In this document: piece after piece, positions 9,505-29,850 of the stretch
Position numbering within the stretch: position 1 is the first letter of the stretch
Layout: every line of letters starts with the position of its first letter
Origin: Candidatus Omnitrophota bacterium
GTDB taxonomy: Bacteria > Omnitrophota > Gorgyraeia > Gygaellales > JBFMHM01
Length of the DNA: 64,000 nt
Assembly (NCBI GenBank): GCA_040753015.1
Contig: JBFMHM010000007.1
Location: forward strand, 2,076 to 66,075
Direction: 5' to 3'
The notes under the pieces: model-generated
Told to the model about the DNA's origin: nothing
Database searches by the model: none
Seen by the model: the letters and a program-made list of their open reading frames with translations, nothing else
Program-made: the position numbers and the translations under genes

Positions 9505-10059
9505 TCACCATGCTTCAACGGTTTTTTCGACAATCCTACGCACCAAATCAAAACTTGCCTCTCTGACAATCGTATCATCACTTTTCTCAAGATTGCCTTC
9601 TACAAATGTACTTGTATCGCCGCCATAATTATTTAATTCCCAAAGCATTTTATTATTACGGCTATCATAAAGCCTTACATCTACAAGAATATTTACACGA
9701 TATTCCTCAACCTCATTATCAGCATTATAACGCACTGGGTCTTTACGATAATCAATAAGTTCTCCTGATAAGATCAGATCAGCATTTTTACTAGACACCA
9801 CCCTAAGGCTTCCATCAATAATAAACCTATCAACTAAAGAATTAGTTAACGTTGTTTCAACCCCGGCAGTATATGTCTTATAAATACTGCGGCTACCTTC
9901 CGATGTAAAATTAATCTTATTCTTAAACGGATCTATATGTATTGTTTTTAAATCTGGCGCGAGGGCTGTTTTTGTTGTGTAACCACATCCGGCTAAAATT
10001 GAAACTAAGAAACAAATCTGCACAATCGGTATTATCAATCTACCTAATTTGGAATTCAT
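9505..10059 (-). CDS. lptE: LPS-assembly lipoprotein LptE-like (184 aa)
   Basis: Lipobox 'LAGCG' after a signal peptide, about 180 aa, immediately upstream of holA as in the E. coli leuS-lptE-holA arrangement. Confidence 0.45.
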   Translation of the reverse strand: MNSKLGRLIIPIVQICFLVSILAGCGYTTKTALAPDLKTIHIDPFKNKINFTSEGSRSIYKTYTAGVETTLTNSLVDRFIIDGSLRVVSSKNADLILSGELIDYRKDPVRYNADNEVEEYRVNILVDVRLYDSRNNKMLWELNNYGGDTSTFVEGNLEKSDDTIVREASFDLVRRIVEKTVEAW

Positions 10060-11033
10060 TTTTTCTTTTCCTTCATTTTTTGTGAATGCTCGAGAATTTC
10101 TATAGCCTTTAATTGCCCGCGGGATTTTTCTGCAAAATCAGTATCAGGATAATAATCAATAACTATCTGATAATAAATTTTAGCGGCACCGTAAGCTTTA
10201 TTTTTAAAATAAAATTGGGCAATATCAAAATTATTCCTGGCTTCTTTATTTTTAAGTGAACCGATGTGTTCTTGGGCTTTTTGTGTAAGTTCAGCGTCGG
10301 GATGTTTACTGACAAATTCTTCAAATTTCTCACGTGCTTCTTTAGAATATTCCTGGTCATATCCAACTTTTGGCGATACTCTTTCTAGAGATGCGGCAAT
10401 CTGGAATTTCGCAGGTTCCACCCATTCACTATTCGGATAGTTTGCAATTACTTTTTCAAATTCATCTTGCGCATCAAGATAATAACCTAAATTTTTTAAA
10501 ACAAGCCCGAGTTTATATTGCGCTTTTGCTGCAAGTTTGCCATAGGGAGCATTCTCAACAACTTTTCTTAATATTTCAATAGAAGGGTTTTCTACAGGTA
10601 AGGGTATTTTACCTATTTTCCGTGTCTCACCCTCCATAAACCTTTCAGCGATTGCATATTCTCTCTCTATAACCTCATTCACGCGGCCTGAAAAAGGGTA
10701 TTTATCAATTACCTTCTGGTAAGCAAGATACGCATCATATGAATTCCCTCTATTCTCATAAGACATCCCAATATAATATTGTGATTCCGCGGCTTCAAAA
10801 CACCCGGGAAAATATTTAATAAGTTTTTGAAATTCTTCTATCGCCTTGTCATAATCCTTAGCCTGATAATAATCCATAGCCACTAAAAATTGGTCTTTAG
10901 GATTTTTTCTAACTGTGTATTTTGGATTTACAAATTTTCCGGTTTTTGGCGTCCAAATCCAGTAGGCATAGGAAATTTTAGGCAAAAATAAGCCTAAAAT
11001 TAAAATAAGAATAGTTAGAATTCGTTTGTTCAT
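10056..11033 (-). CDS. bamD: TPR-repeat outer-membrane assembly factor, BamD/YfiO-like (325 aa)
   Basis: Signal peptide plus repeated TPR-like 'YY.A...Y..A...F..L...YP.S' units typical of BamD. Confidence 0.5.
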   Translation of the reverse strand: MNKRILTILILILGLFLPKISYAYWIWTPKTGKFVNPKYTVRKNPKDQFLVAMDYYQAKDYDKAIEEFQKLIKYFPGCFEAAESQYYIGMSYENRGNSYDAYLAYQKVIDKYPFSGRVNEVIEREYAIAERFMEGETRKIGKIPLPVENPSIEILRKVVENAPYGKLAAKAQYKLGLVLKNLGYYLDAQDEFEKVIANYPNSEWVEPAKFQIAASLERVSPKVGYDQEYSKEAREKFEEFVSKHPDAELTQKAQEHIGSLKNKEARNNFDIAQFYFKNKAYGAAKIYYQIVIDYYPDTDFAEKSRGQLKAIEILEHSQKMKEKKK

Positions 11034-11096: not shown

Positions 11097-11240
11097 ATCG
11101 CCTCGATTTGAATTAGGCTTAAGTCAATACCCCCTGGATCTGGTTGGATTTCTGTAGGGGCAGATCCATGTATCTGCCCAGATAAAATAGGCATTGCCTC
11201 GCCAGCTTGAGCTATATAAGCAACTGCTCGGTCTATGATT
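11097..11240 (-). pseudogene. 48-codon remnant homologous to the C-terminal tail of the downstream giant protein
   Basis: Manual translation: IDRAVAYIAQAGEAMPILSGQIHGSAPTEIQPDPGGIDLSLIQIEAIA*. The giant ORF C-terminus is ...VERAEAYVATVAGDRVSIEQAQGVPTEIQPDPGGIDLSLIQIQPLIS*. The nucleotide match is about 60 nt ('gaattaggcttaagtcaataccccctgg.tctggttggattt', 11110-11160 vs 12638-12690). Confidence 0.65.
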
Positions 11241-11266
11241 AAATTTTGTTTAATCCTTTCGCATCT

Positions 11267-12517
11267 TCATTCCTTTAATAAATATTTCCACGCAGGAATA
11301 ACTTCTATCATTTGGCCTGCTTCCTTCAGCATCCTCTCATTATCCTTAGAAATAACAGATATTTTTTTGTTTTTCGGAAATCTTTTTAAAAAAAGCCTTA
11401 AGCCATCAAATTTTTTGTCTTTCAGGTTAATTTCGGATTGATATTTAACTTCTACCGCACCTAGAACATGAAAATTACTAAATACAAAATCAATCTCCTT
11501 TTCACTTTCTGCAAAATAACCTATTCTGGGCTGTTTTTTAAAAAGACATAGAAATACCGCATTTTCCACTTTTACACCTAAATCACCTTTTCCTGTTAAA
11601 ACGGTTTTTATTCCACTATCAAAAAGGTAATTCTTTTTTTGTGAATATACCCGTTCATTATAAGATGTTGCCCATTTTTCAAGCGGCTTAATTAAAAAAG
11701 ATGCTTCCAAATACCCAATATATTCCTTAACTGTATCAACTGCGATTCCTAATATATTGCCAAGTTTATTAAAACTTGTCCGCGAACCAACAGAGCTAGC
11801 TATAAGCATCAAAAGATCTTTTAAAACAGATATACGTTTTATACTATGTAACCTAACAATATCTCGCACTAGAATATCATCTATCAAATTATTCAAATAA
11901 TCATCTGAAGGATGAAGCGCATTTTCAGGATATCCTCCCCGCATAAGATACTCCTCAAATAGAGCTTCAAATTTATAATCCTCAGACTTTGAAGGTAATT
12001 CTTTTTTAAAAGAAAGATATTCTTTAAAATTTAACGGATATATCACTGTAACGATTTGCCGGCCCGCAAGCCTTCCCTCTTGCCTTTTAATTAAAGAAGA
12101 TGTAGAACCGCTGCAAATTATTTTAACATTTTCTAAATCATACATCGATTTTAGCTCTATCTCCCAACCAGGAGTTTCCTGTATTTCATCCAAAAAAAGA
12201 TAAAGTTTTTTTGAACGCGAATGCATAAAAATTTTTCTAAATAATTTAAGGTGTTCCGTAATGGTAGTTTTAGATAAACGTGGATTATCAAGGCTTAAAT
12301 AAATAATATCTTTTGCCGGAATATTTTTGTGTAAGCACCATTTTATTAGCTGTTTTATAATTGTAGTTTTACCAACCCGCCTTGACCCAATAATTATATC
12401 TATTTGCTTACGGCTAAAAATTTTTTCTATTTTACCTAAATAATCTGTTCTTTGTATGCCACATTCAAATTTTTTATTCTCCCACCAAGGGTTAAAAGCA
12501 TAATACAAATCCTCCAT
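11267..12517 (-). CDS. AAA-family ATPase with DUF4143-like C-terminus (416 aa)
   Basis: Walker A 'IIIGSRRVGKTTIIKQL' and Walker B 'LFLDEIQ'. The architecture matches the widespread AAA_14/DUF4143 'ATP-binding protein' family. Confidence 0.8.
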   Translation of the reverse strand: MEDLYYAFNPWWENKKFECGIQRTDYLGKIEKIFSRKQIDIIIGSRRVGKTTIIKQLIKWCLHKNIPAKDIIYLSLDNPRLSKTTITEHLKLFRKIFMHSRSKKLYLFLDEIQETPGWEIELKSMYDLENVKIICSGSTSSLIKRQEGRLAGRQIVTVIYPLNFKEYLSFKKELPSKSEDYKFEALFEEYLMRGGYPENALHPSDDYLNNLIDDILVRDIVRLHSIKRISVLKDLLMLIASSVGSRTSFNKLGNILGIAVDTVKEYIGYLEASFLIKPLEKWATSYNERVYSQKKNYLFDSGIKTVLTGKGDLGVKVENAVFLCLFKKQPRIGYFAESEKEIDFVFSNFHVLGAVEVKYQSEINLKDKKFDGLRLFLKRFPKNKKISVISKDNERMLKEAGQMIEVIPAWKYLLKE

Positions 12518-12612
12518 AATAACCTCGCTTTCTTATTTAATATAATATATATGAAATCGAAACTTTTGTCAAATAATTTCTATTACAATCGAAACTTTTG
12601 TATTAGAAAAAT

Positions 12613-15600
12613 TCAACTAATTAAAGGTTGGATCTGAATTAGGCTTAAGTCAATACCCCCTGGGTCTGGTTGGATTTCCGTAGGAACACCCTGTGCCTGT
12701 TCAATAGACACTCTATCGCCAGCCACTGTTGCAACATATGCCTCTGCGCGCTCAACTAACGTAGGTTCAGCTTGACCAGTGCGTTCGGTAATTTCTGTTG
12801 GCGATGCACCAACTTGCCTAAGTAGCTGCTCTATTGGATTGCCTGATCTACCACCTTGAACCAATGTTAATCTTGACGGTGGATTTTTAGAATCCGAACT
12901 ACCTGGTTCGTTTCCTGATTCTAGATTAGGATCTAGTGCTTCGGACGCTAACACGCCTAACCTAATTAATTGTGGAATACATTCTGCATCGCCATGATAT
13001 CCTTGCCATTGGCCTTCGTAAAGCGAAAGATGCATCTGTCTATTAATATCTAGAGCAACAATAAAACTTATATTTTTATACTTACCCCAAAGAAATTCAG
13101 CTCTAGAATTATCTTCGTCGCTTGGCTTAACATTATGACCTTCTTCGGGATGATAATGTCCCTGGACATCCTCTATCTGCGATAAAACTCCATTGTAATG
13201 ATGATAATCACCTAGGATTTCATTAACTGAATCAAAATTTCCTGATACACATAATAATATAGTTTCTTTACCTCTTCTTATAACTCTAAAACCCTTTTCT
13301 ATAGCCATTGCGGTAGACAAGATATCTCTAAATTGCGCAACTGTTAAGCTCTTAAGAACAACTATTCTATGTTCAATTCCACTAGGCATTACCAATGATT
13401 TTCGATCTAAGGATTGTTCTATCTTACCCAATAAATCTATCAGCATATCAACTCCTTTAACTCTTTTTCTAGCCTCCTCTATTATTAATTCGCCTATTAT
13501 ATTTGAAAAAATTTCCTTATCTTCATCGATAAATATGCCGTTTTTCCCATAAACATCATTTTGAAATCTTTCAATTATTCTCGCTATCAAAATTTTTAAA
13601 TCTCTCTCATATCTTTTAGTTTTAGTACTAGGATTATCGAGATTTAATCGAATAGCCAATAATAACTCATTTCTGAATATCTCAATAACGCGCTGCATTG
13701 CTTGTTCCCTCTCTCTTTTTGGTATATCACTAGAATGGGTATTATCCAGCAGAGGCCACATTAATTCATCGCTATATTCAATATCACTACAGTCAACACT
13801 TACATCAGTGCCATCATCGAATTTAATCTCTATCATTTTACTACCAAATAAATCTATCCAATTAATTACTCCCTCTTTTCCATTAAATAAAACGCGATCT
13901 CTCTTATGATATAAAATACCCTTAATCGTTAAAGAATCTGCCAGCCCTACACCTGCCGCGGGATTTATTTCCGTATCTGCCACTTCCACACTTGGTGCTT
14001 CTTCACTTGTAGCACAGCTATATTTTGTAAGTAATGGCTCAACATTGTAAGATCGATTTGCTTGTGCATGCAGGCGATTATTTTGTGCATGAGTGATGTG
14101 ATTGCGACGATCAGCGCCGGTGTAATACTGTAATTCAGCATCCCATCCTTGTGCTTCTGTTATTTCATGGCCAAGGACTGTTTGATATTCTGGATTGCTT
14201 TCTCCTAAATTAAATATCTCTTCGTCCATATACACTACAATTTGCCCATAGCTTGCGCCTAAACCAATGTGGCCAAGCTGGCCAGCTGATGAGCCGTCGG
14301 GATGTTTTAGTTCTTTTAAGCCTTTTACTGGGATAATATAAATACCGTTTACTTCTCGAACTAAGCCCTGTTTTTCTGCTGCTTTTAAAGCGGCTAACCG
14401 TCTCGCCCAAAGCCTTGCATCGCCTTCGCCAGGGTTTCTTTCAATATACACTGCCTCTGGAATATTCCTTATACCTTTATCATCTTTACCTCTAATATGC
14501 TCACTTAGCTTTGAGTTAGGCAGCAACGCACCAGAGCCAGCTGCGGGGTTAGTGTCGTCTTTACTGAATCGCACTAAGAGTCTCTTTACCAAATCTGAAA
14601 TCCTCGTTAATATTGATTGTCTATGTCCATACCACAGTTTTAAGTTTGTAATTGAATACTTTGAATCTGCTGGAAAGTTCTCTTGAATTTTTTGTGTAAT
14701 ATTAGCTTTTTTACTAGTGAGTTTTACCATTGCTACATTGATATTAACACGATTAGAGCCTGTGCTATCGCTTACAGCTACTAACACTTGTTCATAGCCG
14801 TTTTTTTGTGCTATTTCTTGGGTTAATTTATTAAGTAACTGTTCTACGAAAGCCTCTGCATTAAGCCTATTTGCAAGAGGAGTCCTTGGCTCAATACCAA
14901 CTATAACTAAAGACTTTTTGCCATTTATAATTAGAGTAAGCGTATATATTGAACCAACAATTCTGCCGTTTTCAATTATTCTGATTGGAGTAAAATTAGG
15001 ATTAAGTAGTTCTTGCGGATAATCTTTTGTACAGTCTTCTCCAAGGTAACCAAAGAAGTAATCTAGTGATGTTTTTGCCGGAATAAATTCAAGATCTATA
15101 ACTTCTGTTCCTTGTTCGGTTGTTATTCTTTGTTTAACAATGCCGGCTACGCGGGTTAGGCCGCTTACCTCGTCAATTACTTGCCTTGTTTCAATATTTG
15201 CTTCTGGTTTTATTTCAGTGAGAATTTCTTTTAAGGTGTATAAGTTTTGCGCGGTTAAAGGATTATCTAGGCTAATTGCATCTAGGGTTTGTTTTAAATG
15301 TGGATTAACAATTAAAACTAATGTTAGCATAAGATCTAAAGAACCTTGAACTTGTTTAATAGTTGGAGTGCCTGAAGCATGTTGTGTATTTAAGGTGATA
15401 ATTTCTTTTATTATCGCGGGATAATCTATTGTTGCGGCATTGGCAGTTAGATATGTTTGGATTTCTTGTTCTATTAGAGAATAATTTCTTTCTTTAGGGG
15501 CTTTTGCTAGTTCTTCTTGTATAGCTGATTGAGTTTGTAAACTAACAACTAAGGCTCGTAAGTTTTCAGGTAATTCATCTAATCTTTGTAATTTAATAAA

Positions 15601-18600
15601 TCTCTCAGTAATTAATTTTGCTAACACCTCTGGTGGAGCTCTTTGAGATAACTGCTTAAGATGGGTAAGCTTTTCTCGGACAAAGGCCTCTTCTTCAGTA
15701 GTTATTCCTTGAAGAACCAATATTCCTGAATATGCCTGCATTGTAAAAGAAGTTGTAAAGTTTGGTTGTGGTATTACTTCATTTTTATATCGTTCTCTTG
15801 TAGAACGATAGGTTTCAAGAGGAAGATTAGTTGAGCCGACAATAGACAGATGCGTTTCTTCTATCAGCTCGTCATCAATAAGGCCTTGTTCTGGTTCGGT
15901 ACCTTCAATAAATGAATCATAATAGAGCTTATAGTTAACTATAAGCCTAGCCCGTTCTTGGCCTTGTAATTGCTTAAACCTAGCGTATAGCTTAGATAGA
16001 TATAAGGATATTTCAAATTGGCTAAAATACCTGCTTATTAAATTTAATTCTTTCTGGATATTCTCTGGAGTAAGTGTTCTTAAGAATGCGTTGTTATTCT
16101 CTAAATTTGCCCCTGATTGCCTGAAGAATCTAATTAATAAATTATAGGTGTTTTCTTCTTTTAACTGCTCTAAGGTAAAGCCATTATTAAGAAGAATTAA
16201 TAATGCCCTTGCTACTGGTGCTTCTTTAAGATTAGTTTCTCTGCAAACTTTGGTTAAAAATTTATCCATCTCATTACTTACTTCATTAACTAATGTTTTA
16301 TCTGCCGTGGTAAGCGTCTCTGCCACAGCTTGAGCAATAGAAGCGAAAGTTTTGGCTTGCAAGTAAGGATCATTAGGGAGTTTTTCTGCTGCGGCAATAG
16401 CTTTAGCAAAAACAACAGCTGCTTCTTGTTCTGGCCTACCTGCTTGTGCCACAGCTTGAGCAATAGAAGCGAAAGTTTGGGCTTGCAAGTAAGGATCATT
16501 AGGGAGTTTTTCTGCTGCTAAGGCAAGGGCTTGTTCAAACCTACCTGCTTGTGCCATAGCTTGAGCAATAGAAGCAAAAATTTGGGCTTGCAAGGAAGGA
16601 TTATTAGTGAGTTTTTCTGCTGCTAAGGCAAGGGCTTGTTCAAACCTACCTGCTTGTGCCACAGCTTGAGCAATAGAAGCGAAAGTTTTGGCTTGCAAGT
16701 AAGGATCATTAGTGAGTTTTTCTGCTGCTAAGGCAAGGGCTAAACGCAAAATTAAATTCTGTTTATGAGCTAATTTTTTAACGATTACTTGTTCATCATC
16801 TGCAACTGTAGCTACTCCTGCCGCGGGATTTGTTTCATTATCTACCACTTCCACACTTGGTGCTTCTTCACTTGTAGCACAGCCGTATTTTGCAAGTAAT
16901 GGCTCGACATTGTGAGTTTGATTTGCATTAGTGTGCAGGCGAGTATTTTGTGCGTGAGTGATGTGATTACGACGATCTGCTCCTATGTAAAATTGTAATT
17001 CAGTATCCCAACCTTGTGCTTCTGTTATTTCATGGCCAAGGACTGTTTGATATTCTGGATTGCTTTCTCCTAAATTAAATATCTCTTCGTCCACATACAC
17101 TACAATTTGCCCATAGCTTGCACCTAAACCTATGTGCCCAAGCTGGCCTGCTTTTGTACCGTCAGGATGTTTAAGATCTTTTAAACCTTTTACGGGAATG
17201 ATGTAAATACCGTTTACTTCTCGAACTAAGCCTTGTTTTTCAGCTGCTTTTAAAGCGGCTAACCGTCTCGCCCAAAGCCTTGCATCGCCTTCGCCAGGGT
17301 TTCTTTCAACATAGACTGCCTCTGGAATATTTCCGCGTTTAGCAATATGTTTACTTAACTCTGAATTAGGCAGCAACGCACCAGAGCCTGCGGCGGGGTT
17401 GATGGAAGATTTAAATGCTGTAACTTCATGATCAAGTCGTACAAGAAAGCTATCTTTCTCTAATAAATCTGTAAGAAAAATGCCTTTTGGGCTGTTTAAA
17501 ATCTCTCCTAAAAGATTAGAATCATGTATTAAAAGCCATCTTACAAAAGCAGCCGAGACAAAAATTTTTCCCTGATCCACAAAACTTATAGCAACCCCCG
17601 TTTCTGCGTCTTCAAAAATAAAATCTACATCTTTTAATAATACAACCTCTGAAGCTCTGTCTCCTAATGATTGAATAACATCCCTAAAGCCAGCGATCAT
17701 ATTATCATTAAAACCAAAATCACACCTTAATCTATTTTGGGAATCTCTAGGTTCTAAGGGCCTGAAAGTCGTTCTTTCAGGAAGAGGGTCTAGATAATCT
17801 ATAAAAGGCTCATATAAAACGATATTTCCTTCTCTAACAACAGCTCCACATGCTCTATTACGCCTTAAAGAATCGGCGATTTTTCGTTGAGCATGATTGC
17901 TGAGTGCCCTTACCTGGCGAGACCAAAGAAATTCACAAATAAATGAACCGAGCAGATCGGATAAGCGATGTCGTAAAATAGAATCGTCCAACTTAGCCCT
18001 CTCTAAATCTACCAACCTCTCTAAATCTGCCGGGCTTCTCCTTAAGATCCAAATCAAAAATTCTTCACTAATCCAAAATCTATTATCCCTAAAATGACTC
18101 ACGATAGCACTGCGTTTTTCTGAATCGTAATAAATAAATGGTCTAGATCGCAAAATAGCTAAAGATATCCCTCGGCTACGTAAATATGTTAAGAATAACT
18201 CAACTCGTCTTTTATCTAAATCGCCAAATTGAATCCCTTCTCCTTCTGGAATAATCCTTCTCACCCTAAAGCCTACTCGGCTAACCCTTGGGATAGATGT
18301 TTGAACAAGCTGATTATCGCTTCCTAAGCTCAATTCAAGAGCTTTTTCTACACCGTTTTCAACAGCACTAGCTAAAATAGAAGATATTTCTGCTTCGTAT
18401 TGCACAGTATCTTCATGAGCTACTTCGTCTTGCGGCCCTTGAACATTTTCTCTTTCTAAACCTAAGCCTTCTTCAACACTGTCTTCCTCTGCTAAGACAA
18501 TCGAAGCTAAGTCGGCTAGTTCGCTATCAGATAAATTTAATGAAAAATTCACTTTTAACTGGCGTAGTAAAATTATTAGTATTTCGTTAGGCAAAGAACC

Positions 18601-20016
18601 AGTCTTATCCCCCTGTAAACATGAAAGTTGATCTCTGTAAATTTCTAGACTCCTCTTATCAAGAGGCACTCGGCCTGGACTACTTTTATTAGACATAAGT
18701 ATAAGAATTACCTTTCCTATCATTTGTTTTTTGATTGTTCTAAGAGCAGCAAAAAACTTTAAATTATTCAATTTAACCTCGGGATACGAAAGTAATCGGG
18801 TAATCGCTACTCCTGCTGCCTCTTTAATAATACCAGCTTGTTTTCCATGTATTTTACCTAGAAATAACAAAGAGTCTCTAATGTTTGAGCTACCTCTAAA
18901 CATAATGCGAATCATAAGAACTACACCGGCTAACTTATTAAGTTCATCTAGTATTTCTTGGAAGTTCAATTTAGTATATATATGCCACATCTGGTCATAA
19001 GACATATTCAAACTTCCCGCTTGAAGGCGAACATAAACCTCTGGTAATGCTTTCTCTATTTGAAATGTTGTAATTGATTTTGCACCCGGAGAAGCTAAAT
19101 CTGAATCTTCAAAATAAGTACTCAGCATCATTTCTATTAAAAACTTTTTAGCAATACTTCTTTCAGTAGGACTAAGTTCCGACATAAAACTAATATCTAA
19201 TCTATCTGCTACACTCTGAATAACCTGACTTTTACTTAATAAACAACGTTGAAGATATCTTGAAAGTTTTTCTCGTGCTTCTGATGACCTATCTTCTAGC
19301 ATATGCAGTGGAACACGAATAATTCCATCTTCCGAAATAGCAAATTCGGTTAATTCAATATCAACTAGCAGAATTACTAAGCCTGAGCATTCATTTTCTA
19401 ACCAAGGATATAATTTAATGGCTTTCTTCAATACATCCTCAAAATAATCTAATTTTTCTTTCACAATAAGAATAGTGGCTGTGGAATCACGCGTGCCCTC
19501 TCGCTTTAATTTATTTGCGCTCATTCGATATTGAGCAAAATTTACATTAGATTGTTGTTGTCTTAATAATTCAGCTCTTACTCTTAAAGCTGTAAGGGCA
19601 TTTTCTTGCCCTGCACCAGCACGCATAGCTTGATATCCAAAATAGAACAAACGGATATACTCCCATGGATTAATGTAAGAATTATCTTGCTGGCCAACCG
19701 AAGCCGTTTGGACTTGTATTTCTTTGGTAATTTCACTAATACCAAAGATAAAAGTTAAGTAATCTTTTTCTTTTTGACTGCGCTCTTTATCAGGCGCATA
19801 ATTTGCTAAATTTCTTTGCTCATCAGACAACGGAACCCCCCAACCTAATTCTTTATTTGCCCAAAGAGCCGTATCCATCTGTTCTCTGCTTGACTTAAGC
19901 GAAACAGCCTGACAATTTGATTCAATCATTTGGATAAAACTAATTTCTGGATTAATAATAAAAACTGTTCCATTATCTAAAACCACCTCAAATGCAACTG
20001 TTTCCTTGCCGCGCAA
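12613..20016 (-). CDS. Giant protein (2467 aa), function unknown. It has an internal ~200-aa duplicated module, four 35-aa TPR-like tandem repeats, and two copies of a 'GHEITEAQ' module. No N-terminal signal peptide.
   Basis: Single uninterrupted ORF in the track. The repeats are visible at both protein and nucleotide level. One region is shared with the neighbouring 1319-aa protein ('AAFVRWLLIHDSNLLGEIL' vs 'EAFLKYLLNHDSKLLEDIF'). Confidence 0.85.
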   Translation of the reverse strand: MRGKETVAFEVVLDNGTVFIINPEISFIQMIESNCQAVSLKSSREQMDTALWANKELGWGVPLSDEQRNLANYAPDKERSQKEKDYLTFIFGISEITKEIQVQTASVGQQDNSYINPWEYIRLFYFGYQAMRAGAGQENALTALRVRAELLRQQQSNVNFAQYRMSANKLKREGTRDSTATILIVKEKLDYFEDVLKKAIKLYPWLENECSGLVILLVDIELTEFAISEDGIIRVPLHMLEDRSSEAREKLSRYLQRCLLSKSQVIQSVADRLDISFMSELSPTERSIAKKFLIEMMLSTYFEDSDLASPGAKSITTFQIEKALPEVYVRLQAGSLNMSYDQMWHIYTKLNFQEILDELNKLAGVVLMIRIMFRGSSNIRDSLLFLGKIHGKQAGIIKEAAGVAITRLLSYPEVKLNNLKFFAALRTIKKQMIGKVILILMSNKSSPGRVPLDKRSLEIYRDQLSCLQGDKTGSLPNEILIILLRQLKVNFSLNLSDSELADLASIVLAEEDSVEEGLGLERENVQGPQDEVAHEDTVQYEAEISSILASAVENGVEKALELSLGSDNQLVQTSIPRVSRVGFRVRRIIPEGEGIQFGDLDKRRVELFLTYLRSRGISLAILRSRPFIYYDSEKRSAIVSHFRDNRFWISEEFLIWILRRSPADLERLVDLERAKLDDSILRHRLSDLLGSFICEFLWSRQVRALSNHAQRKIADSLRRNRACGAVVREGNIVLYEPFIDYLDPLPERTTFRPLEPRDSQNRLRCDFGFNDNMIAGFRDVIQSLGDRASEVVLLKDVDFIFEDAETGVAISFVDQGKIFVSAAFVRWLLIHDSNLLGEILNSPKGIFLTDLLEKDSFLVRLDHEVTAFKSSINPAAGSGALLPNSELSKHIAKRGNIPEAVYVERNPGEGDARLWARRLAALKAAEKQGLVREVNGIYIIPVKGLKDLKHPDGTKAGQLGHIGLGASYGQIVVYVDEEIFNLGESNPEYQTVLGHEITEAQGWDTELQFYIGADRRNHITHAQNTRLHTNANQTHNVEPLLAKYGCATSEEAPSVEVVDNETNPAAGVATVADDEQVIVKKLAHKQNLILRLALALAAEKLTNDPYLQAKTFASIAQAVAQAGRFEQALALAAEKLTNNPSLQAQIFASIAQAMAQAGRFEQALALAAEKLPNDPYLQAQTFASIAQAVAQAGRPEQEAAVVFAKAIAAAEKLPNDPYLQAKTFASIAQAVAETLTTADKTLVNEVSNEMDKFLTKVCRETNLKEAPVARALLILLNNGFTLEQLKEENTYNLLIRFFRQSGANLENNNAFLRTLTPENIQKELNLISRYFSQFEISLYLSKLYARFKQLQGQERARLIVNYKLYYDSFIEGTEPEQGLIDDELIEETHLSIVGSTNLPLETYRSTRERYKNEVIPQPNFTTSFTMQAYSGILVLQGITTEEEAFVREKLTHLKQLSQRAPPEVLAKLITERFIKLQRLDELPENLRALVVSLQTQSAIQEELAKAPKERNYSLIEQEIQTYLTANAATIDYPAIIKEIITLNTQHASGTPTIKQVQGSLDLMLTLVLIVNPHLKQTLDAISLDNPLTAQNLYTLKEILTEIKPEANIETRQVIDEVSGLTRVAGIVKQRITTEQGTEVIDLEFIPAKTSLDYFFGYLGEDCTKDYPQELLNPNFTPIRIIENGRIVGSIYTLTLIINGKKSLVIVGIEPRTPLANRLNAEAFVEQLLNKLTQEIAQKNGYEQVLVAVSDSTGSNRVNINVAMVKLTSKKANITQKIQENFPADSKYSITNLKLWYGHRQSILTRISDLVKRLLVRFSKDDTNPAAGSGALLPNSKLSEHIRGKDDKGIRNIPEAVYIERNPGEGDARLWARRLAALKAAEKQGLVREVNGIYIIPVKGLKELKHPDGSSAGQLGHIGLGASYGQIVVYMDEEIFNLGESNPEYQTVLGHEITEAQGWDAELQYYTGADRRNHITHAQNNRLHAQANRSYNVEPLLTKYSCATSEEAPSVEVADTEINPAAGVGLADSLTIKGILYHKRDRVLFNGKEGVINWIDLFGSKMIEIKFDDGTDVSVDCSDIEYSDELMWPLLDNTHSSDIPKREREQAMQRVIEIFRNELLLAIRLNLDNPSTKTKRYERDLKILIARIIERFQNDVYGKNGIFIDEDKEIFSNIIGELIIEEARKRVKGVDMLIDLLGKIEQSLDRKSLVMPSGIEHRIVVLKSLTVAQFRDILSTAMAIEKGFRVIRRGKETILLCVSGNFDSVNEILGDYHHYNGVLSQIEDVQGHYHPEEGHNVKPSDEDNSRAEFLWGKYKNISFIVALDINRQMHLSLYEGQWQGYHGDAECIPQLIRLGVLASEALDPNLESGNEPGSSDSKNPPSRLTLVQGGRSGNPIEQLLRQVGASPTEITERTGQAEPTLVERAEAYVATVAGDRVSIEQAQGVPTEIQPDPGGIDLSLIQIQPLIS
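13940..14555 (-). repeat. Intragenic segmental duplication, copy 2 (~610 nt, ~90% identical to 16800-17405)
   Basis: Both copies encode 'NPAAGSGALLPNS..LWARRLAALKAAEKQGLVREVNGIYIIPVKGLK.LKHPDG..AGQLGHIGLGASYGQIVVY.DEEIFNLGESNPEYQTVLGHEITEAQGWD.ELQ.Y.GADRRNHITHAQN'. Confidence 0.85.
16310..16745 (-). repeat. Four tandem ~105-nt repeats encoding 35-aa TPR/HEAT-like units
   Basis: Unit 'gcttgtgccacagcttgagcaatagaagcgaaagttttggcttgcaagtaaggatcattag.gagtttttctgctgc...' at about 16315, 16443, 16551 and 16650. Encoded unit: 'EQALALAAEKL(T/P)NDPYLQAQ(T/I)FASIAQA(V/M)AQAGRF'. The antisense ORFs 16290..16499 and 16330..16521 are artefacts of the repeats. Confidence 0.85.
16800..17405 (-). repeat. Intragenic segmental duplication, copy 1
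   Basis: Long near-identical nucleotide runs, for example 'ccacttccacacttggtgcttcttcacttgtagcacagc' in both copies. Confidence 0.85.
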
Positions 20017-20177
20017 TAATCTGCGTAATGTAGCGTGATGAGCACCTTGAGCAACAGCTAATTCTTCGATATTTGTAATTCCTTGAAGTTGGTATTTTTT
20101 AGGAAGGGCTTTATGTGTTAAGTCGGGATAACTAATATTCCAATGATGTTCATTGGCAAGCTCACTAATCGCATTGG

Positions 20178-23100
20178 TTAATTCGGGTGATCGATCTTGG
20201 GGGTTATTTTTTTTGCCTCTAATTCATCGCAGAGTGTTTTGCCTGGCATACTTGTTGAAGAAATTGTAGCAAGATCTTGTAATACTAAAAGGCGTTCTTT
20301 GACTTCATGATAAAGAACTTCTTTTAATTTTGGTGGGGCTCTAAGATGGTTAACATTAAGATAAATCTGCCTGCGGCCTAAAGCATAGTGATCATCTCCA
20401 TTATAAAAAATAATGTCTGTATCTTTAAGTGCCTGCCCTAACCCTAGCTCATCGATTGTATCTTGTAGAAGTTTTAACTGCTCTTGTGATAATTGTATAT
20501 CTTGTTCTCTTATACTAATTACCTCACCTTGCTTGCGTGTTTTTCCGTCTGATTCAATAGTTGCATCTAATTTAAAATCAACTTGGCAAGTTTTGCCACT
20601 TTGCGCATCATACCTTGCCGCTGCAATTTCATTTTCTACGATTGCCTTTTGTATACCAGGTGTATAATCCACGTTCCTGCCATGCCTAAATCCTCGGTGA
20701 TCAGACATTGAGCTACCAGGATTCATAGCTAAAAGCTGTTGAGCAGTTGTGACAACATCTATATTATCACTTCTTATTTTCACCAACTTTGCACTTCTTG
20801 GGTCATCGGTAAAAACAATTCGCCCATCATAAAAATACAACTCACCAGTTAATGGACACACTAAAATCCCTACACCAGTTGGGAAGTGACTATTGGATAG
20901 TCCAACATCCAAACCAGAATATTTTCCTACCCAATAATTACTTAGTGTCTTAGGATGAATATGCCACCACCCAATGGTAATTAATTGAGGTAAAGAATGA
21001 CCGCGCTGATCATTTAACTTATTTCGAAAAGAAGTTGCAGTCGATAAATAATCCATACTAAAAACAAGGCTTCCCGGGCCACGCGTTAATCCTTCATCGA
21101 CTGAATAAATATTTGTAATTACTAAAATATCACCATCACGATAGCCAAACAACAAGCCACCATATTCATTAACATCATTATTATGCGGGTCATTTAGAAG
21201 TTCCTGGCGAAGCCTATTATCAAATCGAACAGTCCGAATACCATCTAACCCTGACAAAGGATTAGTAAGTTCAAAATCTAATAATTCTCCATCATCACTT
21301 GAAGGTGGAAGCAAAAAATCCCCGCGGGGAGATTGATGGGCTGGCTGTGTAGGGTGAACTGCTGATAATTCTGCAGTAGGTGCAGGCATTGCTGGCGGAG
21401 GCAAAGGTTGAGATGCTGGGGGTTGTGCAACTGGCTTGGTCATAATTGCATCAGTTAATTTAGCTACAAGGCTTGTATGATCACTAAAAATATCCGCGGG
21501 TGTAATTTTTCCGCTTATTGATGCATCCTTTAAGATATCCTTTACAAAACCTCTAACCATTAAATATGTAAAAATCCTTTGGTCAAGCGGATAAAACCCC
21601 GGCCAAACAAAATTAAAAAATAAATGTCTCTCAGAAGTATACCGACGACCACCAACATGTCTAGTGCCTCCCTCATAAGCCGATTTTGTTTCTACACAAA
21701 CATCGTTTAGAATAAGCTGCGGTACAATTTTTGGCTGAGCCGCCAATACAGATTGTAATCGCGATAATAAATCCTTTAGCTCTACGTCAATTGTTTCTGC
21801 ATTTAAGCCGCGTACCCTCGCGATAACTTCTTCTGCAAAAGAAAGCGCTTCTTTGTAATCTAACTGGTGTAAGTACCGCATATCGGTAGTAACACCTAAA
21901 ATATCTGTAACAAGCTCTCTAGAAACATCAACGCCTGCGCCAACGAAAAACGCAGTCATTATCGAGCCTTGTTTTACAAGTACTTCGTTTGCAATTTTTG
22001 TTCCTAATCTCCAAATTAAATTAGAAGAATCATCGGAATCTATTTCAATTACAGAACCTAATTCTTCTGGCCCTACAACAATAGAAACTCTTCTTATCCC
22101 ATTTAACATTATTTTAAGACTTGCTATTTTATCTTCTATTCTTCTAGCCCAATCACTCCAATCACTAGTATCAGTACTCATGACTAACCCAGGTCGTAGT
22201 TGAGCAACCGCTGTCCTAAGCCGTTGGCTTTCAGCCTGTTTTCTTTTAGCGCGTTCTTCAGGTGTTATAGATAATTTTTCTATAATATCATCTAACATAC
22301 GCTTTACTGGCCTATTCTGACTAGCATCAAATGATCCTGGAAGTATTACAGTAATTCCCGTCATTTTTCTAATTGCTGCTTCAACCCTCTGTAAAAGTTC
22401 ATTGTAGTCGGAATCCGTATCATGAGAATAATCTGGTTCATTCAAATGACGAAGGTCGTGGCGGAAGATGTCTTCTAGAAGTTTTGAATCATGATTTAAA
22501 AGATATTTTAGGAATGCTTCTGTAAGCCAAATTCTTCTGCGTTCTTGGCTAAAGATACCGCCAGCTACTGTTGCACCTGCATGGGTATAGGCAAAAGATG
22601 CACTATCTTGAGGTTGATAAAGCACAGGGCCCCTGCGATCAAGGCCAATACGAAAACCATTAATTTCTCCCTGAGGCAGGCTAGCCCATATTCTAACAAG
22701 TTCTCTTTGCTCTCCCTCTGTAAGATTTACTGCTTCTTGCCTAGTTAATTCACGAAGATTATCAACTGCATTATTTGGCATATTCCTTTGCACAATTCGT
22801 CCATCCTCAAAGCTCAACTCTACTACCGCGCTTGGGCCAACTGCAATTGCTGCTCTAAGATGCGGATTCACCTCTCTATTATTATCCGCATTGCCGATGT
22901 TAACAATATCACTTCTCGGCAATCGCCCCACCTCACTAACTGTTGCAGTCCGCTGGACAGAAAGCTCTCCAGTTTGCGCAAAAAGCATACCACCACTTGT
23001 GTAAGTTCTTTTAATTTTACGATTTAATTCTTTTTGATCTTGGGTATCTATAAGTTTATATTCGCCTTTTGTTGAGTTTAGGTAAGATTTATAAATTTGC

Positions 23101-24137
23101 TCTGGTTTAAATTTAAGATTATTGGTTTTTTGATAAGAATTTATTAATTGTTTTAACTTTTCGTTTTTCTCTTTACTCTTTACGCTTTTTTTGTACCACT
23201 GGGCGAGAATGAGTGCTTGATAAATTTGTCTAAGTGGTTCATAGGCTTTGTCTTGGTTTACTCGTTGAGTTAGTTCTGGGAGTATCAGTTGTTTTAGTTG
23301 AGATTCACAATATTCCTGTAGTTCTTCAGTTCGTTTGTCATTAGAAATTGGGATTTGGGATTTCTCAAGGTATTCGCTTTCTAGAAGCACCTTGAGCGTT
23401 GCTTTAACTATTGTAATTGAATCTTTAGTTTCGTAGACTTTAGCTTCATCAGGAACTATCCAGACGCGGAAGGTGGTAGGAATAGATACAGTTCGACTGT
23501 TCGTCAGTTCTTCGGTTCTTAGGTTTTGATTTTCATTTTGATTTTTGGTTTGTATATTTGATATTTGATATTTGATTTTTGATTTTTCTAAAGCTTTAGC
23601 CTTAGAAAACACTCTTTCCCAATAGGTTTTAGCATTTTTACCATAACCGGGTAATAATTCAAAGGCTGTGTCTTTCTTTAGTTTTAGGTCTAATACTAAA
23701 AGCGCTTTACCTAGGTCAGTGTCAGCAATTGAGTTACCGATGATTCTGCTTGGATCGTTTGGATTTAGGTTAACCCAAAGGTCTTTGTAGTCTATAGATA
23801 GGCTAGTAAAGAAATAATCTAGAAGCTCTTTACTTTTAAGCTTCTTCTGTTGTTCTGATATGTTGCGAGGAAGAAAGTTGAAATTAAAATTAAACCCAGA
23901 ATTTAGAGAAAGCGAAACGAATGTTGCATTTGGTTCGGGGACTTTAAGGCTAACAGCTTGGCCAAAGCTAATACTCTGGCAAAGAAATGTAAATGCCAAA
24001 AATAGACAAAAAATCCTTCTTGTAAGACTTATTTTATTCATTATAAATTTTTTGAAAAAGTGGACAAAAAATAACCCCTCACATATGCTTGGGGGTCGCC
24101 AGACTTCGTCGAACTCTGACGAGATATGTTTATTCAT
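20178..24137 (-). CDS. Giant secreted protein, function unknown, with a JAB/MPN (JAMM-like) domain near the C-terminus and a C-terminal 'YHEV' module. Annotated as 1319 aa from the track's first Met; the probable true start at the internal Met (24041) gives about 1287 aa with a signal peptide.
   Basis: An internal Met at about 24041 begins a classic signal peptide, 'MNKISLTRRIFCLFLAFTFLCQSISFGQA'. An MPN core 'EYGGLLFGYRDGDILV...GWWHIHP...YSGLD' lies at about 20880-21180. There is a low-complexity NQNENQN stretch at about 23530-23600. Confidence 0.85.
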   Translation of the reverse strand: MNKHISSEFDEVWRPPSICEGLFFVHFFKKFIMNKISLTRRIFCLFLAFTFLCQSISFGQAVSLKVPEPNATFVSLSLNSGFNFNFNFLPRNISEQQKKLKSKELLDYFFTSLSIDYKDLWVNLNPNDPSRIIGNSIADTDLGKALLVLDLKLKKDTAFELLPGYGKNAKTYWERVFSKAKALEKSKIKYQISNIQTKNQNENQNLRTEELTNSRTVSIPTTFRVWIVPDEAKVYETKDSITIVKATLKVLLESEYLEKSQIPISNDKRTEELQEYCESQLKQLILPELTQRVNQDKAYEPLRQIYQALILAQWYKKSVKSKEKNEKLKQLINSYQKTNNLKFKPEQIYKSYLNSTKGEYKLIDTQDQKELNRKIKRTYTSGGMLFAQTGELSVQRTATVSEVGRLPRSDIVNIGNADNNREVNPHLRAAIAVGPSAVVELSFEDGRIVQRNMPNNAVDNLRELTRQEAVNLTEGEQRELVRIWASLPQGEINGFRIGLDRRGPVLYQPQDSASFAYTHAGATVAGGIFSQERRRIWLTEAFLKYLLNHDSKLLEDIFRHDLRHLNEPDYSHDTDSDYNELLQRVEAAIRKMTGITVILPGSFDASQNRPVKRMLDDIIEKLSITPEERAKRKQAESQRLRTAVAQLRPGLVMSTDTSDWSDWARRIEDKIASLKIMLNGIRRVSIVVGPEELGSVIEIDSDDSSNLIWRLGTKIANEVLVKQGSIMTAFFVGAGVDVSRELVTDILGVTTDMRYLHQLDYKEALSFAEEVIARVRGLNAETIDVELKDLLSRLQSVLAAQPKIVPQLILNDVCVETKSAYEGGTRHVGGRRYTSERHLFFNFVWPGFYPLDQRIFTYLMVRGFVKDILKDASISGKITPADIFSDHTSLVAKLTDAIMTKPVAQPPASQPLPPPAMPAPTAELSAVHPTQPAHQSPRGDFLLPPSSDDGELLDFELTNPLSGLDGIRTVRFDNRLRQELLNDPHNNDVNEYGGLLFGYRDGDILVITNIYSVDEGLTRGPGSLVFSMDYLSTATSFRNKLNDQRGHSLPQLITIGWWHIHPKTLSNYWVGKYSGLDVGLSNSHFPTGVGILVCPLTGELYFYDGRIVFTDDPRSAKLVKIRSDNIDVVTTAQQLLAMNPGSSMSDHRGFRHGRNVDYTPGIQKAIVENEIAAARYDAQSGKTCQVDFKLDATIESDGKTRKQGEVISIREQDIQLSQEQLKLLQDTIDELGLGQALKDTDIIFYNGDDHYALGRRQIYLNVNHLRAPPKLKEVLYHEVKERLLVLQDLATISSTSMPGKTLCDELEAKKITPKIDHPN

Positions 24138-24294
24138 ATCTTATTATATGTTAATTATACCTTATAAATAGCCTAAAAACAAGGCTCTGGAGGCTTTTTT
24201 TGAAAGCGGTTACAACCAATTAGTATTTACATCATAACTTATTATATATCAGGTAGTTAAGCAATCATTAACTACTAATATAAAACTAATAGAA

Positions 24295-25524
24295 TTAAAA
24301 TTGATAATTCGGCTTATATACAAACTGACGGCCGTGTTTAGATTTAACAAGAATTCCCTTTACGACCAAATCCTCAAGATCATGACGTGCAGTTTCATAA
24401 ACAACCTTAAACCAACCTTCATAGGCCTTAATAATTATCATCCTTTTATCACTTACGAGAAATTTTTTAAGAAATTTATCCTGGCGCTCATTAAGCAGAA
24501 TCCCTTTTTCTCTTAGCTTAACAAAAACAAACTCACGTTGATAATGTTGAGCGATTCGCTCACTAACAAGCCGCATAGACTCTAAAATTGTATCCGATAG
24601 ATACAGTAAGAAATAAGTCAAATCAGCATTGCAATCTTCTACATCTTTAATGGCCCTGTAATACTGTATTTTTGTCTTCTGAACAACCGCTGATATAGAA
24701 AAATATTTAAAAAATTCATATCCGTGTTTAATCATAAAATAATAGAACAACGCCCGTGCAGTCCGGCCATTACCATCGAAAAATGGATGAATATAAACAA
24801 AATAAAAATGGATAAAAGACGCTCTAATTATAGGATGAATAAAACGCTCATCATCTTTACTATTAACCCACTCAACTAGTTTTCTCATTGCTGGTTCAAT
24901 CTGCTCTGCCTTAGGCGGCGTATAAATTATAATATCGCGCCGCTTGTCTTTAATATAAACCATATCATCACGGAAGCGCCCAGCATAAGCTTCATCTTCA
25001 AAAAGAGTTTCTTTAGTCACAATTTTATGCAATTGCAAAATAAAATCTAAAGATAATTCTCTATGCTTCTCTTGCAAGATAAATTGCATAGCCTTATAAT
25101 TATTTAAAACCATTTGATCATTAATATCTATAGGCGATTTTTTTTCTTCTACTAATTCACGTAAACGCTTCATAGTTGAGAAAGCCCCTTCAATAACACT
25201 TGAATAAAGCGCTTCTTCTATTAACGAATCTTTCACGAGTTCATTTTCAATTTCTTTCTTAACAACCCGATATAAAGAATCTTTACCACTCGAATCTATT
25301 TCGTAAATTCTTTTCTGTAATATTGGCGTTAAAAAATACCAAAAATTTTGATTATTTTGATCTATAAACGGCAAGCCCTCTGATTTCTGTTTTCTAAACT
25401 TAATTGCCTCTTGCCAAAACTCCTCTAAAGATAATTCGTTCGGAAGCCTATAACCAATTTCTTCTTTAGATAGATAACCTTGAACAGAAAATTTATTTAT
25501 AAATTCATTTATATTAGTATTCAT
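24295..25524 (-). CDS. fic: Fic-family protein (AMPylase-type), 409 aa
   Basis: Canonical Fic motif 'HPFFDGNGRTARALF'. It sits immediately upstream, on the same strand, of the giant secreted protein. Confidence 0.85.
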   Translation of the reverse strand: MNTNINEFINKFSVQGYLSKEEIGYRLPNELSLEEFWQEAIKFRKQKSEGLPFIDQNNQNFWYFLTPILQKRIYEIDSSGKDSLYRVVKKEIENELVKDSLIEEALYSSVIEGAFSTMKRLRELVEEKKSPIDINDQMVLNNYKAMQFILQEKHRELSLDFILQLHKIVTKETLFEDEAYAGRFRDDMVYIKDKRRDIIIYTPPKAEQIEPAMRKLVEWVNSKDDERFIHPIIRASFIHFYFVYIHPFFDGNGRTARALFYYFMIKHGYEFFKYFSISAVVQKTKIQYYRAIKDVEDCNADLTYFLLYLSDTILESMRLVSERIAQHYQREFVFVKLREKGILLNERQDKFLKKFLVSDKRMIIIKAYEGWFKVVYETARHDLEDLVVKGILVKSKHGRQFVYKPNYQF

Positions 25525-29830: not shown

Positions 29831-29850
29831 TGAATACCTTCTAAGAATAG

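Follow-up and report, generated by a model that had tools for sequence, protein, structure and literature searches.

Omnitrophota are noted for very long proteins whose function is unknown. West-Roberts et al. (2023, bioRxiv 10.1101/2023.11.21.568195) and a 2026 preprint (10.64898/2026.06.07.730766) have surveyed the long and giant multidomain proteins of this phylum; both discuss possible proteolytic self-processing and a cell-surface role, and classify the proteins by Pfam. In this study, we have analysed a 64,000-nucleotide stretch of contig JBFMHM010000007.1 from a Candidatus Omnitrophota bacterium (the window), and in particular the interval between its comEC and bamD genes, where a giant gene lies between a Fic gene and a gene for an AAA ATPase with a DUF4143 domain. 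Our investigations demonstrate that two long open reading frames (ORFs) in this interval, coding for 1,319 and 2,467 amino acids (aa), are one gene interrupted by a frame change of a single nucleotide. The fused product opens with a conserved domain that we call domain X, of which Pfam, by which both surveys classify, has no model, and it closes with a short element, GGID[FL].

The window protein shares with the giants of West-Roberts et al. its phylum, a signal peptide and a length of several thousand residues; proteins of this kind mix GNAT, HATPase_c, radical SAM, HEAT/TPR, PPDK_N and response-regulator domains. Unlike the Archaeovorin and Dockerin types described there, it has about 3.8 thousand residues and not at least 30,000, and Pfam finds in it no dockerin/EF-hand, thrombospondin/TSP3, C39 or SecA-like domain. 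Term searches of the two preprints returned nothing like domain X or the GGID[FL] signature, and literature searches for GGIDL or for a conserved N-terminal domain in Omnitrophota returned nothing relevant. As far as these sources go, the gene fits the documented long, signal-peptide-bearing and domain-rich proteins of the phylum, and the signature formed by its two ends is new.

Cargo families built from a signal peptide, a passenger that varies and a sorting element conserved at the C-terminus include the proteins with a C-terminal domain of the type IX secretion system and those of the PEP-CTERM, GlyGly-CTERM and PGF-CTERM families. They resemble the proteins studied here in having conserved termini round a highly variable passenger, with the signal peptide at the N-terminus and numerous paralogues in each genome. 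The differences are that there is no sequence relation, that no transmembrane helix follows GGID[FL], that the N-terminal domain is conserved as well, and that the domain-X family has no known sorting enzyme or secretion system of its own. Polymers assembled by strand exchange (FimA/Mfa1 and TasA; PMC13655056, PMC9674648) offer a looser analogy, in that a terminal beta-strand-like element would resemble one that stands beside the folded domain at the other terminus; there is, however, no homology, no fold match between domain X and pilins, and the domain-X subunits would be thousands of residues long. As for the neighbouring genes, SoFic proteins act through AMPylation in abortive infection, and Sofic of E. 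coli has a small antitoxin gene, AS1, downstream (PMC12249575). PDC-S01, the type that the ATPase resembles, is itself a candidate defence system only.

Results

The two long ORFs are identical to NCBI proteins AB1755_05815 and AB1755_05820 (from a 68,296-bp contig), which are annotated separately, and the first-pass annotation likewise described two giant proteins. We conclude that they are one gene, because an open coding frame without a start, an overlap at a run of eight A (A8), a homologue that reads through the junction and the domain architecture of other family members all agree. The frame of the 2,467-aa ORF stays open for 69 codons above its annotated TTG start, the longest such extension among the 41 ORFs of the window (0-26 in the others), and contains no ATG, GTG or TTG over this distance. 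In codon usage, the 62 codons that precede the TTG score 0.41 bits per codon, as against 0.41±0.12 and 0.39±0.14 within the frames of the big ORFs and -0.8 to -1.1 off-frame; in this score the linker is also unlike most intergenic DNA. At the A8 run, the same frame overlaps the final 13 codons of the 1,319-aa ORF, and GAG GCA AAA AAA followed by a slip back of one base reads ..ELEAKKNNPQDRSPELTNAISELANEHH..; either a ninth A, or a -1 slip on A AAA AAA, would restore a single ORF. The junction fused in this way, ..LCDELEAKKNNPQDRSPELTNAISELANEHH, aligns with ..LFDELKLTLTAPEDRSPELNQAIADISTRVH in an Omnitrophota homologue (L004, VGKM01000022), a single ORF of 2,596 aa that reads through the junction with two tandem copies of what we call the Z module, and the fusion raises this alignment from 72.8 to 91.7 bits. 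Finally, domain X of the upstream ORF and domain Y of the downstream ORF stand within single proteins in P0092, P0112 and P0144, the first of which also has the D module of the downstream ORF.

The cause of the break was considered separately. A slippery heptamer of the form X XXY YYZ is present in the zero frame (GC A AAA AAA ATA), but no convincing stimulatory structure was found 3' of the run (110 nt fold to -13.3 kcal/mol, and the nearest element is a 3-bp hairpin), and the A run is not conserved at this position, L004 being single-frame without it; a programmed -1 ribosomal frameshift was rejected on these grounds. An assembly error comes close to an even chance, a real off-state or a pseudogene is a serious possibility as well, and a bypass by slippage is rather improbable. 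Other domain-X genes are also found in pieces. In L061 (358-6808), the domain-X ORF has 442 aa and overlaps an ORF of 1,766 aa in a different frame, the shared stretch containing a G7 run (1548-1554); in L059 (6255-9653) the gene is in two parts with a single in-frame stop between them. Systematic errors of assembly could explain such splits, as could frequent switching. One further homopolymer in the island reaches eight or more bases, a T8 run on the + strand (25138-25145) within the intact Fic ORF.

A word-indexed search with the 1,319-aa ORF found 89 proteins including its own entry (P0002), i.e. 88 homologues, all of which match only residues ~40-420. Most of them are Omnitrophota proteins of 1,000-2,300 aa that carry domain X directly after N-termini equivalent to the signal peptide of the giant protein, and five are paralogues within the same metagenome-assembled genome (MAG). 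Their middles vary, with HEAT, HD, PEP-utilising, radical SAM, receiver, DnaJ, adenylate kinase, triose-phosphate isomerase and HATPase_c domains, and many segments have no Pfam match. When GTDB species representatives were scanned with a domain-X pattern made from a seven-sequence subset of the homologues, at least 534 loci were found, several in some genomes, with ORFs of up to 3,700 aa; the 80 loci that were listed are mostly labelled Omnitrophota or Omnitrophica, and about a fifth 'uncultured Planctomycetales'. Domain X is internal or close to the C-terminus in a minority of homologues, and a membrane anchor comes after it; these are labelled Theionarchaea or Methanotrichaceae, or as PGF-CTERM, TPR or RHS proteins. 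Sequence and profile searches found no relative of domain X in Pfam, NCBIfam or the PDB, and we regard it as a novel fold. On its sequence, the fused protein of ~3,841 aa belongs to a large, mostly Omnitrophota family that is undescribed so far and absent from these three databases.

The signal peptide seen in the first-pass annotation when translation starts at 24041 stands, and NCBI uses the same start. In archaeal homologues, domain X follows a signal sequence and precedes a membrane anchor at the C-terminus. From this, and from the predicted peptide with which the giant protein begins, we infer that the latter is exported by Sec and is extracytoplasmic, in line with the earlier description of an extracellular protein.

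The other end of the protein was examined by scanning 662,000 residues of fetched proteins and locus ORFs for [GA]G[IV][DN][FL][STHRN].[IVLM].[IVLM]. This motif occurs 108 times, against 0 in shuffled sequences, and always at one of three positions. Most occurrences (83) are in the C-terminal part of Omnitrophota members (..GGIDFRALPIVTQP..), ~105-135 residues before the end where positions were printed, and are followed by a conserved C-terminal domain; 19 mark the N-terminal boundary of domain X in archaeal and RHS-type proteins (..GGIDFTSIHLNYIS..); and the remaining six are at the extreme C-terminus, namely in the fused protein, its paralogues P0006 and P0007, and P0048, P0052 and P0055. 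In the fused protein, GGIDLSLIQI lies 5 aa from the terminus, and the last 25 residues are ..PDPGGIDLSLIQIQPLIS. The layout shown by Omnitrophota members, as predicted from their sequences, is a signal peptide, domain X, a variable middle, the GGID[FL] element and an optional C-terminal domain. The window protein has this layout only if its two ORFs are joined, domain X lying in the first and GGID[FL] in the second.

Further observations concern the relatives of this tail. Most Omnitrophota domain-X proteins, namely class-c members such as P0009, P0011, P0015, L010 and L018, have an extra conserved C-terminal domain of ~110-130 aa after GGIDF, which ends in ..CISDILRxEEExCxxTDPxLKDILVVLxSxRS.. 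and has no Pfam domain on record; the proteins of the window's MAG end directly after the motif, without this domain. A C-terminal module had been described as common to the giant proteins and a GHKL protein at the end of the window. The resemblance is real as a family signature, and it comprises only the GGIDL motif of ~10 residues. The GHKL ORF (61088-64000, - strand) has no upstream stop before the window ends, so that it is cut by the window and probably much longer than shown; it ends in ..ENGGIDLTTLSF before its stop codon, its residues 473-564 are 52% identical to a segment of the domain-X paralogue P0006, and it is probably another member of the family.

Two homologues bring RHS and polymorphic toxins into the comparison, P0080 (1378-1764) and P0082 (1199-1498), which carry GGIDF or GGVNF and domain X downstream of the RHS core and DPxGL. 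The position after DPxGL is the usual site of the toxin cargo in RHS proteins. Unlike in such toxins, ~160-370 residues lie between DPxGL and GGID[FL] in these two homologues, and the window protein has no RHS repeats. P0080 has a C-terminal transmembrane helix after domain X.

Between its ends, the giant protein resembles no Pfam or NCBIfam family over its bulk, as had been noted at the outset. Word-indexed searches with the 2,467-aa ORF and with residues 400-1319 of the 1,319-aa ORF found only the queries themselves. Exact-sequence look-ups gave no match for the window proteins, P0001 or P0006, and traced P0092 to one short contig (L001). Searches of the PDB with the whole ORFs, and with profiles of domains X and Y and the D and Z modules, gave nothing significant except designer PPR proteins. 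The part encoded by the 2,467-aa ORF opens with ~560 residues without relatives, followed by two degenerate modules, and it closes, after a second JAMM-like motif, with a low-complexity linker and the GGIDL tail. A block, AF[LV][KR][YW]LL.HDS, had been reported as shared by the two giant proteins. The match exists, but it is weak: residues 515-558 of the 1,319-aa ORF and 799-840 of the 2,467-aa ORF are 36% identical over 44 aa by BLAST, with E 0.013 and 0.026 in the two directions and 6e-4 with 120-aa tiles in a six-sequence database. The block is one copy of a module that is repeated several times within a single protein.

Several segments of the middle have features of enzymes. A JAB/MPN-like domain has weak but concordant matches that align E991 and H1059-x-H1061, in PADLOC at 5.1e-5, in NCBIfam cap2_3 at 4.5e-4, in Pfam below the cut-off, and in PDB 9ild ('Peptidase') at 0.099, the last aligning E..HxH; 12 residues separate HxH from SxxD, compared with 7 in E...HxHx(7)SxxD. 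The region of the second JAMM-like motif has one homologue of 210 aa (P0173, 1.5e-6). The D module, of 240 residues, occurs twice in the 2,467-aa ORF (848-1090 and 1806-2043) with up to 93% aa identity, and its DNA repeat (D2) extends over 300 nt at 90%; homologues are found in P0196, L061, L042 and P0092. Both copies are bracketed exactly by NPAAG (17386-17400, 16816-16830, 14536-14550 and 13951-13965), a sequence met only once more in 662 kaa of related proteins, which may be a processing or linker site. The Z module is present in one copy in P0027. The D and Z modules have the core H..G..H[E/D]xxE in common, and hhalign compares them at E 0.001 with a probability of 21%. A zincin or SprT-like reading of the repeated modules was rejected; apart from one NCBIfam SprT match, at the module of 22368-22640 (0.021, far below the cut-off), nothing spoke for it, and a match to eS24, which aligns ..THFGGGKTTGFGMIYD..RHGLYEKK.. 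and is not significant, was treated as chance. The helical repeats of 35 aa match designer PPR proteins at 6.5e-17 (phmmer) with an Ala/Gly/Gln-rich consensus, and have no Pfam PPR match. Domain Y was revealed only by an exhaustive HMMER scan; the second part of it has a GNAT fold, with no match to a Pfam acetyltransferase.

The 3' end of the gene is present twice. The short relic described in the first-pass annotation is borne out: ~48 codons are alignable (..DRAVAYIAQAGEAMPILSGQIHGSAPTEIQPDPGGIDLSLIQIEAIA and a stop), with a core of 54 nt (11105-11158) that is 94% identical to 12631-12684 and a weaker likeness over ~150 nt. The relic encodes ..PTEIQPDPGGIDLSLIQIEAIA before its stop, as compared with ..PTEIQPDPGGIDLSLIQIQPLIS in the intact tail, and the two form a direct repeat 1,526 bp apart with the ATPase gene between them. 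The relic ends 63 bp before the BamD gene, about where the domain-X gene of a related locus stops (49 bp from BamD in L067), and it marks the old 3' end of the giant gene. Since the AAA gene is located between the duplicated gene end and the relic, it appears to be a later insertion; it would have entered the giant gene ~150 bp before the 3' end, duplicating or replacing that end and leaving the relic tail beside bamD. The relic is in frame with the ATPase gene, with a TGA stop alone between them (..WKYLLKE, stop, RCERIKQNLIIDRAVAYIAQAGE..). Read-through of this TGA would give the ATPase a GGIDL tail, and the frame match may be chance (1 in 3).

The genes on either side of the insertion are SecA, PrfB, PilT, UvrC, MurJ, HolA, LptE and BamD, and ComEC, ComEA, LeuRS and RlmN. 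The 80 metagenomic loci that were fetched by way of the BamD-like protein (39-58% identity) show strong conservation of the cluster RlmN-GDSL-LeuRS-ComEA-ComEC-BamD-LptE-HolA-MurJ-UvrC-PilT-PrfB-SecA. Where both genes are present (67 loci), the gap between ComEC and BamD has a median of 103 bp and a maximum of 9,256 bp; it is at most 300 bp in 54 loci and exceeds 1 kb in six. Because these gaps are short and that of the window is 14,596 bp, the 14.6-kb interval is a true accessory insertion within a cluster of Omnitrophota housekeeping genes, which agrees with its first description as a non-housekeeping island. Profiles of GC and skew do not clearly mark the island. The longer gaps (L124, L132, L133, L147, L155 and L157) hold unrelated cargo in other Omnitrophota, assigned by eye from ORF sequences: a 9-kb block resembling glycosyltransferase and radical-SAM genes in L147, a transporter-like pair in L124, an IS200-like transposase in L132, and PilZ-like genes in L155 and L157. 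The junction therefore looks like a recurrent insertion hot spot that repeatedly takes up foreign DNA. In L067 (PCWA01000012, a GTDB genome), a domain-X gene for 1,110 aa (internal ..SGGIDLSRIELTLKD..) is alone in the ComEC-BamD gap.

The Fic protein (409 aa) is stand-alone, of class II, with a C-terminal domain and without a signal peptide. The canonical motif HxFx(D/E)GNGRxxR is present (HPFFDGNGRTAR, including HPFFDGNGR), the Pfam Fic match is clear (1.5e-22, 80.6 bits for a cut-off of 24), and SSVIEG near the N-terminus fits the inhibitory motif [ST]xxxE[GN]. Its likeness to SoFic AMPylases (PMC12249575) extends to a full-length profile match in PADLOC (2e-50; residues 89-403 on 43-351 of 361 positions of the hidden Markov model) and to the C-terminal domain. 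It differs from them in falling far below the NCBIfam SoFic equivalog (70.9 bits for a cut-off of 550) and in having no AS1-like antitoxin gene downstream, where a gap of 157 bp holds no fitting ORF; its activity is a prediction. In the ATPase (416 aa), AAA_14 (1.5e-31, 109.5 bits for a cut-off of 27) and DUF4143 (2.8e-23, 82.8 bits for 28.1) follow each other in order in Pfam, both well above threshold and both named already in the first-pass annotation, and the protein matches PADLOC PDC-S01 over its full length (5.6e-87, 20-415 on 10-408 of 412).

The linkage of these genes to the giant gene was assessed in the 80 listed domain-X loci (1.19 Mb, genes within 10 kb), which contain no Fic homologue and, in only two cases, a DUF4143 gene; in the 67 syntenic loci, none of the ComEC-BamD gaps holds Fic, DUF4143 or domain X. 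A conserved linkage of the giant gene to Fic or to the AAA gene is therefore lacking, and the co-occurrence search proposed with the first description, which had treated the five elements as one unit, gave no Fic-giant pair in these loci. In a scan for sigma-70-like promoters, the best match was just upstream of the AAA gene and others were upstream of Fic. Because the genes are unlinked in both sets of loci, the domain-X gene of L067 stands alone, and promoter-like sites precede Fic and the AAA gene, these two look like unrelated single-gene passengers, and not parts of one system.

The five co-directional elements are all present at the positions first given for them, and every ORF of the interval and its surroundings is on the - strand. 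In the flank, the LeuRS ORF (27359-29896, - strand) has a listed TTG start at 29896 that overlaps a same-strand tRNA-Ala(GGC) gene (29850-29923) by 47 nt; its true start is probably further downstream. The features are collected in Table 1.

Table 1. Positions in the window of the genes, domains and sequence elements discussed in the text.
Feature	Position	Strand	Basis or remark
LeuRS, ComEA, ComEC	ComEC 25630-27012	-	transcribed ahead of Fic
Fic	24295-25524	-	ORF call, Pfam
Single giant gene	12613..24137	-	~3,841 codons from first ATG, ~3,809 from start at 24041
1,319-aa ORF	20178-24137	-	ORF call
Predicted Sec signal peptide MNKISLTRRIFCLFLAFTFLCQSISFG, cleaved before Q	23961-24041	-	read from sequence; same start in NCBI (P0002)
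Domain X, ~330 aa	22968-23960	-	motifs WVNLNP, DLKLKKD, WIVPD
Module with ..RRIWLTEAFLKYLLNHDSKLLEDIFRHDLRH	22368-22640	-	resembles 18058-18081 (RFWISEEF) and 17545-17568 (KIFVSAAF)
JAB/MPN-like domain	20808-21233	-	E991, H1059-I-H1061, S1074-G-L-D1077
Z module ..GRRQIYLNVNHL..LYHEVKE..	20120-20702	-	crosses frame break
A8 run (T8 on + strand), frame-change site	20207-20214	-	frame analysis
'Intergenic' linker, coding in 2,467-aa frame	20017-20206	-	no ATG, GTG or TTG
2,467-aa ORF	12613-20016	-	ORF call, TTG start
D module copy 1, core GHIGLG..YGQIVVYVD..HEITE	16747-17475	-	NPAAG-bracketed
Four tandem 35-aa helical repeats (PPR/TPR-like)	16315-16740	-	105-nt-period DNA repeat family
Domain Y, ~530 aa: helical part, then divergent GNAT-fold domain (14626-15126)	14614-16215	-	
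D module copy 2	13888-14601	-	NPAAG-bracketed
Second JAMM-like motif KETILL..HYHPEEGHNVKPSDED	13111-13269	-	motif alone
C-terminal tail GGIDLSLIQIQPLIS with GGID[FL] motif	12616-12660	-	family signature
Sigma-70-like promoter match TTGACA-17-TATATT, 11/12	12544-12572	-	in 95-bp gap before AAA gene
AAA_14/DUF4143 ATPase	11267-12517	-	ORF call, Pfam
Relic GGIDL tail	11097-11264 (~11250)	-	63 bp upstream of BamD
BamD/YfiO-like lipoprotein	10056-11033	-	followed by LptE, HolA, MurJ, UvrC, PilT, PrfB, SecA

Discussion

Based on our results, the best explanation of the locus is an insertion at a reused comEC-bamD site that would hold three independent things: a single giant gene, a cytoplasmic SoFic-like Fic AMPylase and a PDC-S01-type DUF4143 AAA ATPase. 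We consider this explanation likely, and the structural account as a whole probable. The giant protein would leave the cell via Sec; its conserved ends would serve anchoring, sorting or assembly at the cell envelope, and its variable middle would be the working cargo displayed outside the cell. This cargo may comprise one probable and one possible JAMM-type metallo-isopeptidase, the repeated H..G..H[E/D]xxE modules, a binding unit of helical repeats and an acyltransferase of divergent GNAT fold, a set that would amount to protein- or envelope-modifying activities. The function of the middle as displayed cargo is tentative and falls somewhat short of an even chance. The Fic protein and the ATPase would be of kinds catalogued as anti-phage or candidate defence genes.

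Several points weigh against this explanation. Every enzymatic assignment in the giant protein is weak or fold-only. The JAB domain named in the first-pass annotation has weak support in PADLOC, and in Pfam the match (0.0035, 17.6 bits) is under the cut-off of 22.5; the second JAMM-like motif has no match in Pfam, NCBIfam, PADLOC or the PDB; the H..G..H[E/D]xxE modules have no significant known relative, their best PDB profile match being eS24 (E 0.09-0.12); and, by inspection, the acetyl-CoA loop R/QxxGxG/A was not found in the GNAT-fold domain (..GIEPRTPLANRLNAEAF..). Roughly 40% of the protein, including residues 1-560 of the 2,467-aa ORF, is without any homologue, and export is predicted from an N-terminus read by eye. 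As regards the passengers, the total of sigma-70-like matches is at chance level, co-transcription of the co-directional and closely spaced Fic, giant and AAA genes is possible, and genes that are unlinked elsewhere may still have a functional interplay here.

Among the alternatives, the one that survives best would have the island be a small anti-phage defence islet, in which a SoFic-like Fic and a PDC-S01-like ATPase flank a decaying giant pseudogene. The two PADLOC matches favour it, as does the frame break, the more so with domain-X genes also split in L061 and L059. Apart from the break, however, the two ORFs run undisturbed over 11.5 kb and have normal codon usage, so that any decay would be very recent, and homopolymer errors in MAGs are an equally good cause of the break. 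The defence activity of the passengers is itself read from sequence likeness, with the Fic protein far below the equivalog cut-off of NCBIfam and no room in the 157 bp downstream of it for an AS1-like gene. We consider a defence islet somewhat unlikely, and prefer three independent elements.

A second possibility concerns how the two ends of the giant protein might work. Domain X and GGID[FL] could be two halves of one module, which would dock into a loop or in a head-to-tail, donor-strand-like assembly, for which strand exchange in type V pili and TasA is the analogue (PMC13655056, PMC9674648). The element adjoins domain X in the 19 archaeal and RHS-type proteins and stands at the opposite terminus in Omnitrophota, with 0 occurrences expected, which is why the two may interact physically. 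In addition, shuffling gives significance to the likeness of the class-a tail to the archaeal boundary motif (score 35-40, p<=3e-4), and class-c mature N-termini start with a similar element, ..AGQLDISG... Against docking, shuffling shows no significant likeness between the tail of a protein and the N-terminal strand of the same protein (p 0.03-0.99), the first hairpin in the structure model of domain X is of low confidence (predicted local distance difference test, pLDDT, 60-75), and the motif could equally be a sorting or a cleavage signal. The idea that the tail co-varies with the N-terminal strand so as to mimic it was dropped for lack of significance, and the result on the positions of the motif was kept. 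Docking of the two ends is thus unlikely on present evidence. The same holds for a broader proposal, that the terminal signature belongs to a new envelope display or assembly system whose ends dock mutually or to dedicated machinery, with the window gene phase-variable at the A8 run; giant enzyme-laden cargo would then be sorted, anchored or polymerised on the surface of ultra-small, host-dependent bacteria, and this we regard as doubtful too.

When the island was first described, Fic, a JAB giant, a repeat giant and the AAA ATPase were proposed to act together as an effector system for interaction with a host or prey. In favour of this view, effector and conflict systems often contain Fic and JAB domains, the genes share one direction and stand close together within a single insertion, and the giant protein has a predicted signal peptide. 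The comparative data speak against it: among the domain-X loci Fic is absent and DUF4143 nearly so, neither occurs at the syntenic junctions, and L067 has its domain-X gene alone at the same site. Moreover, the Fic protein has no signal peptide and, along its whole length, matches a defence type that is cytoplasmic and consists of a single gene, the position of the AAA gene between gene end and relic marks it as a later insertion, and promoter-like sites lie upstream of both. Such a system is highly improbable, and a host- or prey-interaction role for the giant gene alone is possible. Finally, that the two ORFs are truly separate genes, with the 2,467-aa protein made from the annotated TTG, is scarcely credible: NCBI keeps them apart and the TTG exists, but the 62 codons above it are coding in usage and lack a start codon, no Shine-Dalgarno-like sequence precedes it on inspection by eye, homology crosses the junction in the shifted frame, and the ORF has neither domain X nor the signal peptide, both of which occur together with GGID[FL] in complete family members.

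Conclusion

In conclusion, our results correct the annotation of this locus, in which one gene for a protein of 3.8 kaa replaces two hypothetical proteins and is accompanied by two passengers, and the idea of a Fic and JAB effector system should not be carried forward. Pfam-based surveys of the long proteins of Omnitrophota miss domain X and GGID[FL]. Together, these two features provide a handle for grouping hundreds of proteins into one family, for spotting genes that are split in MAGs (the window gene, L061 and L059), and for asking how such proteins are sorted or assembled.

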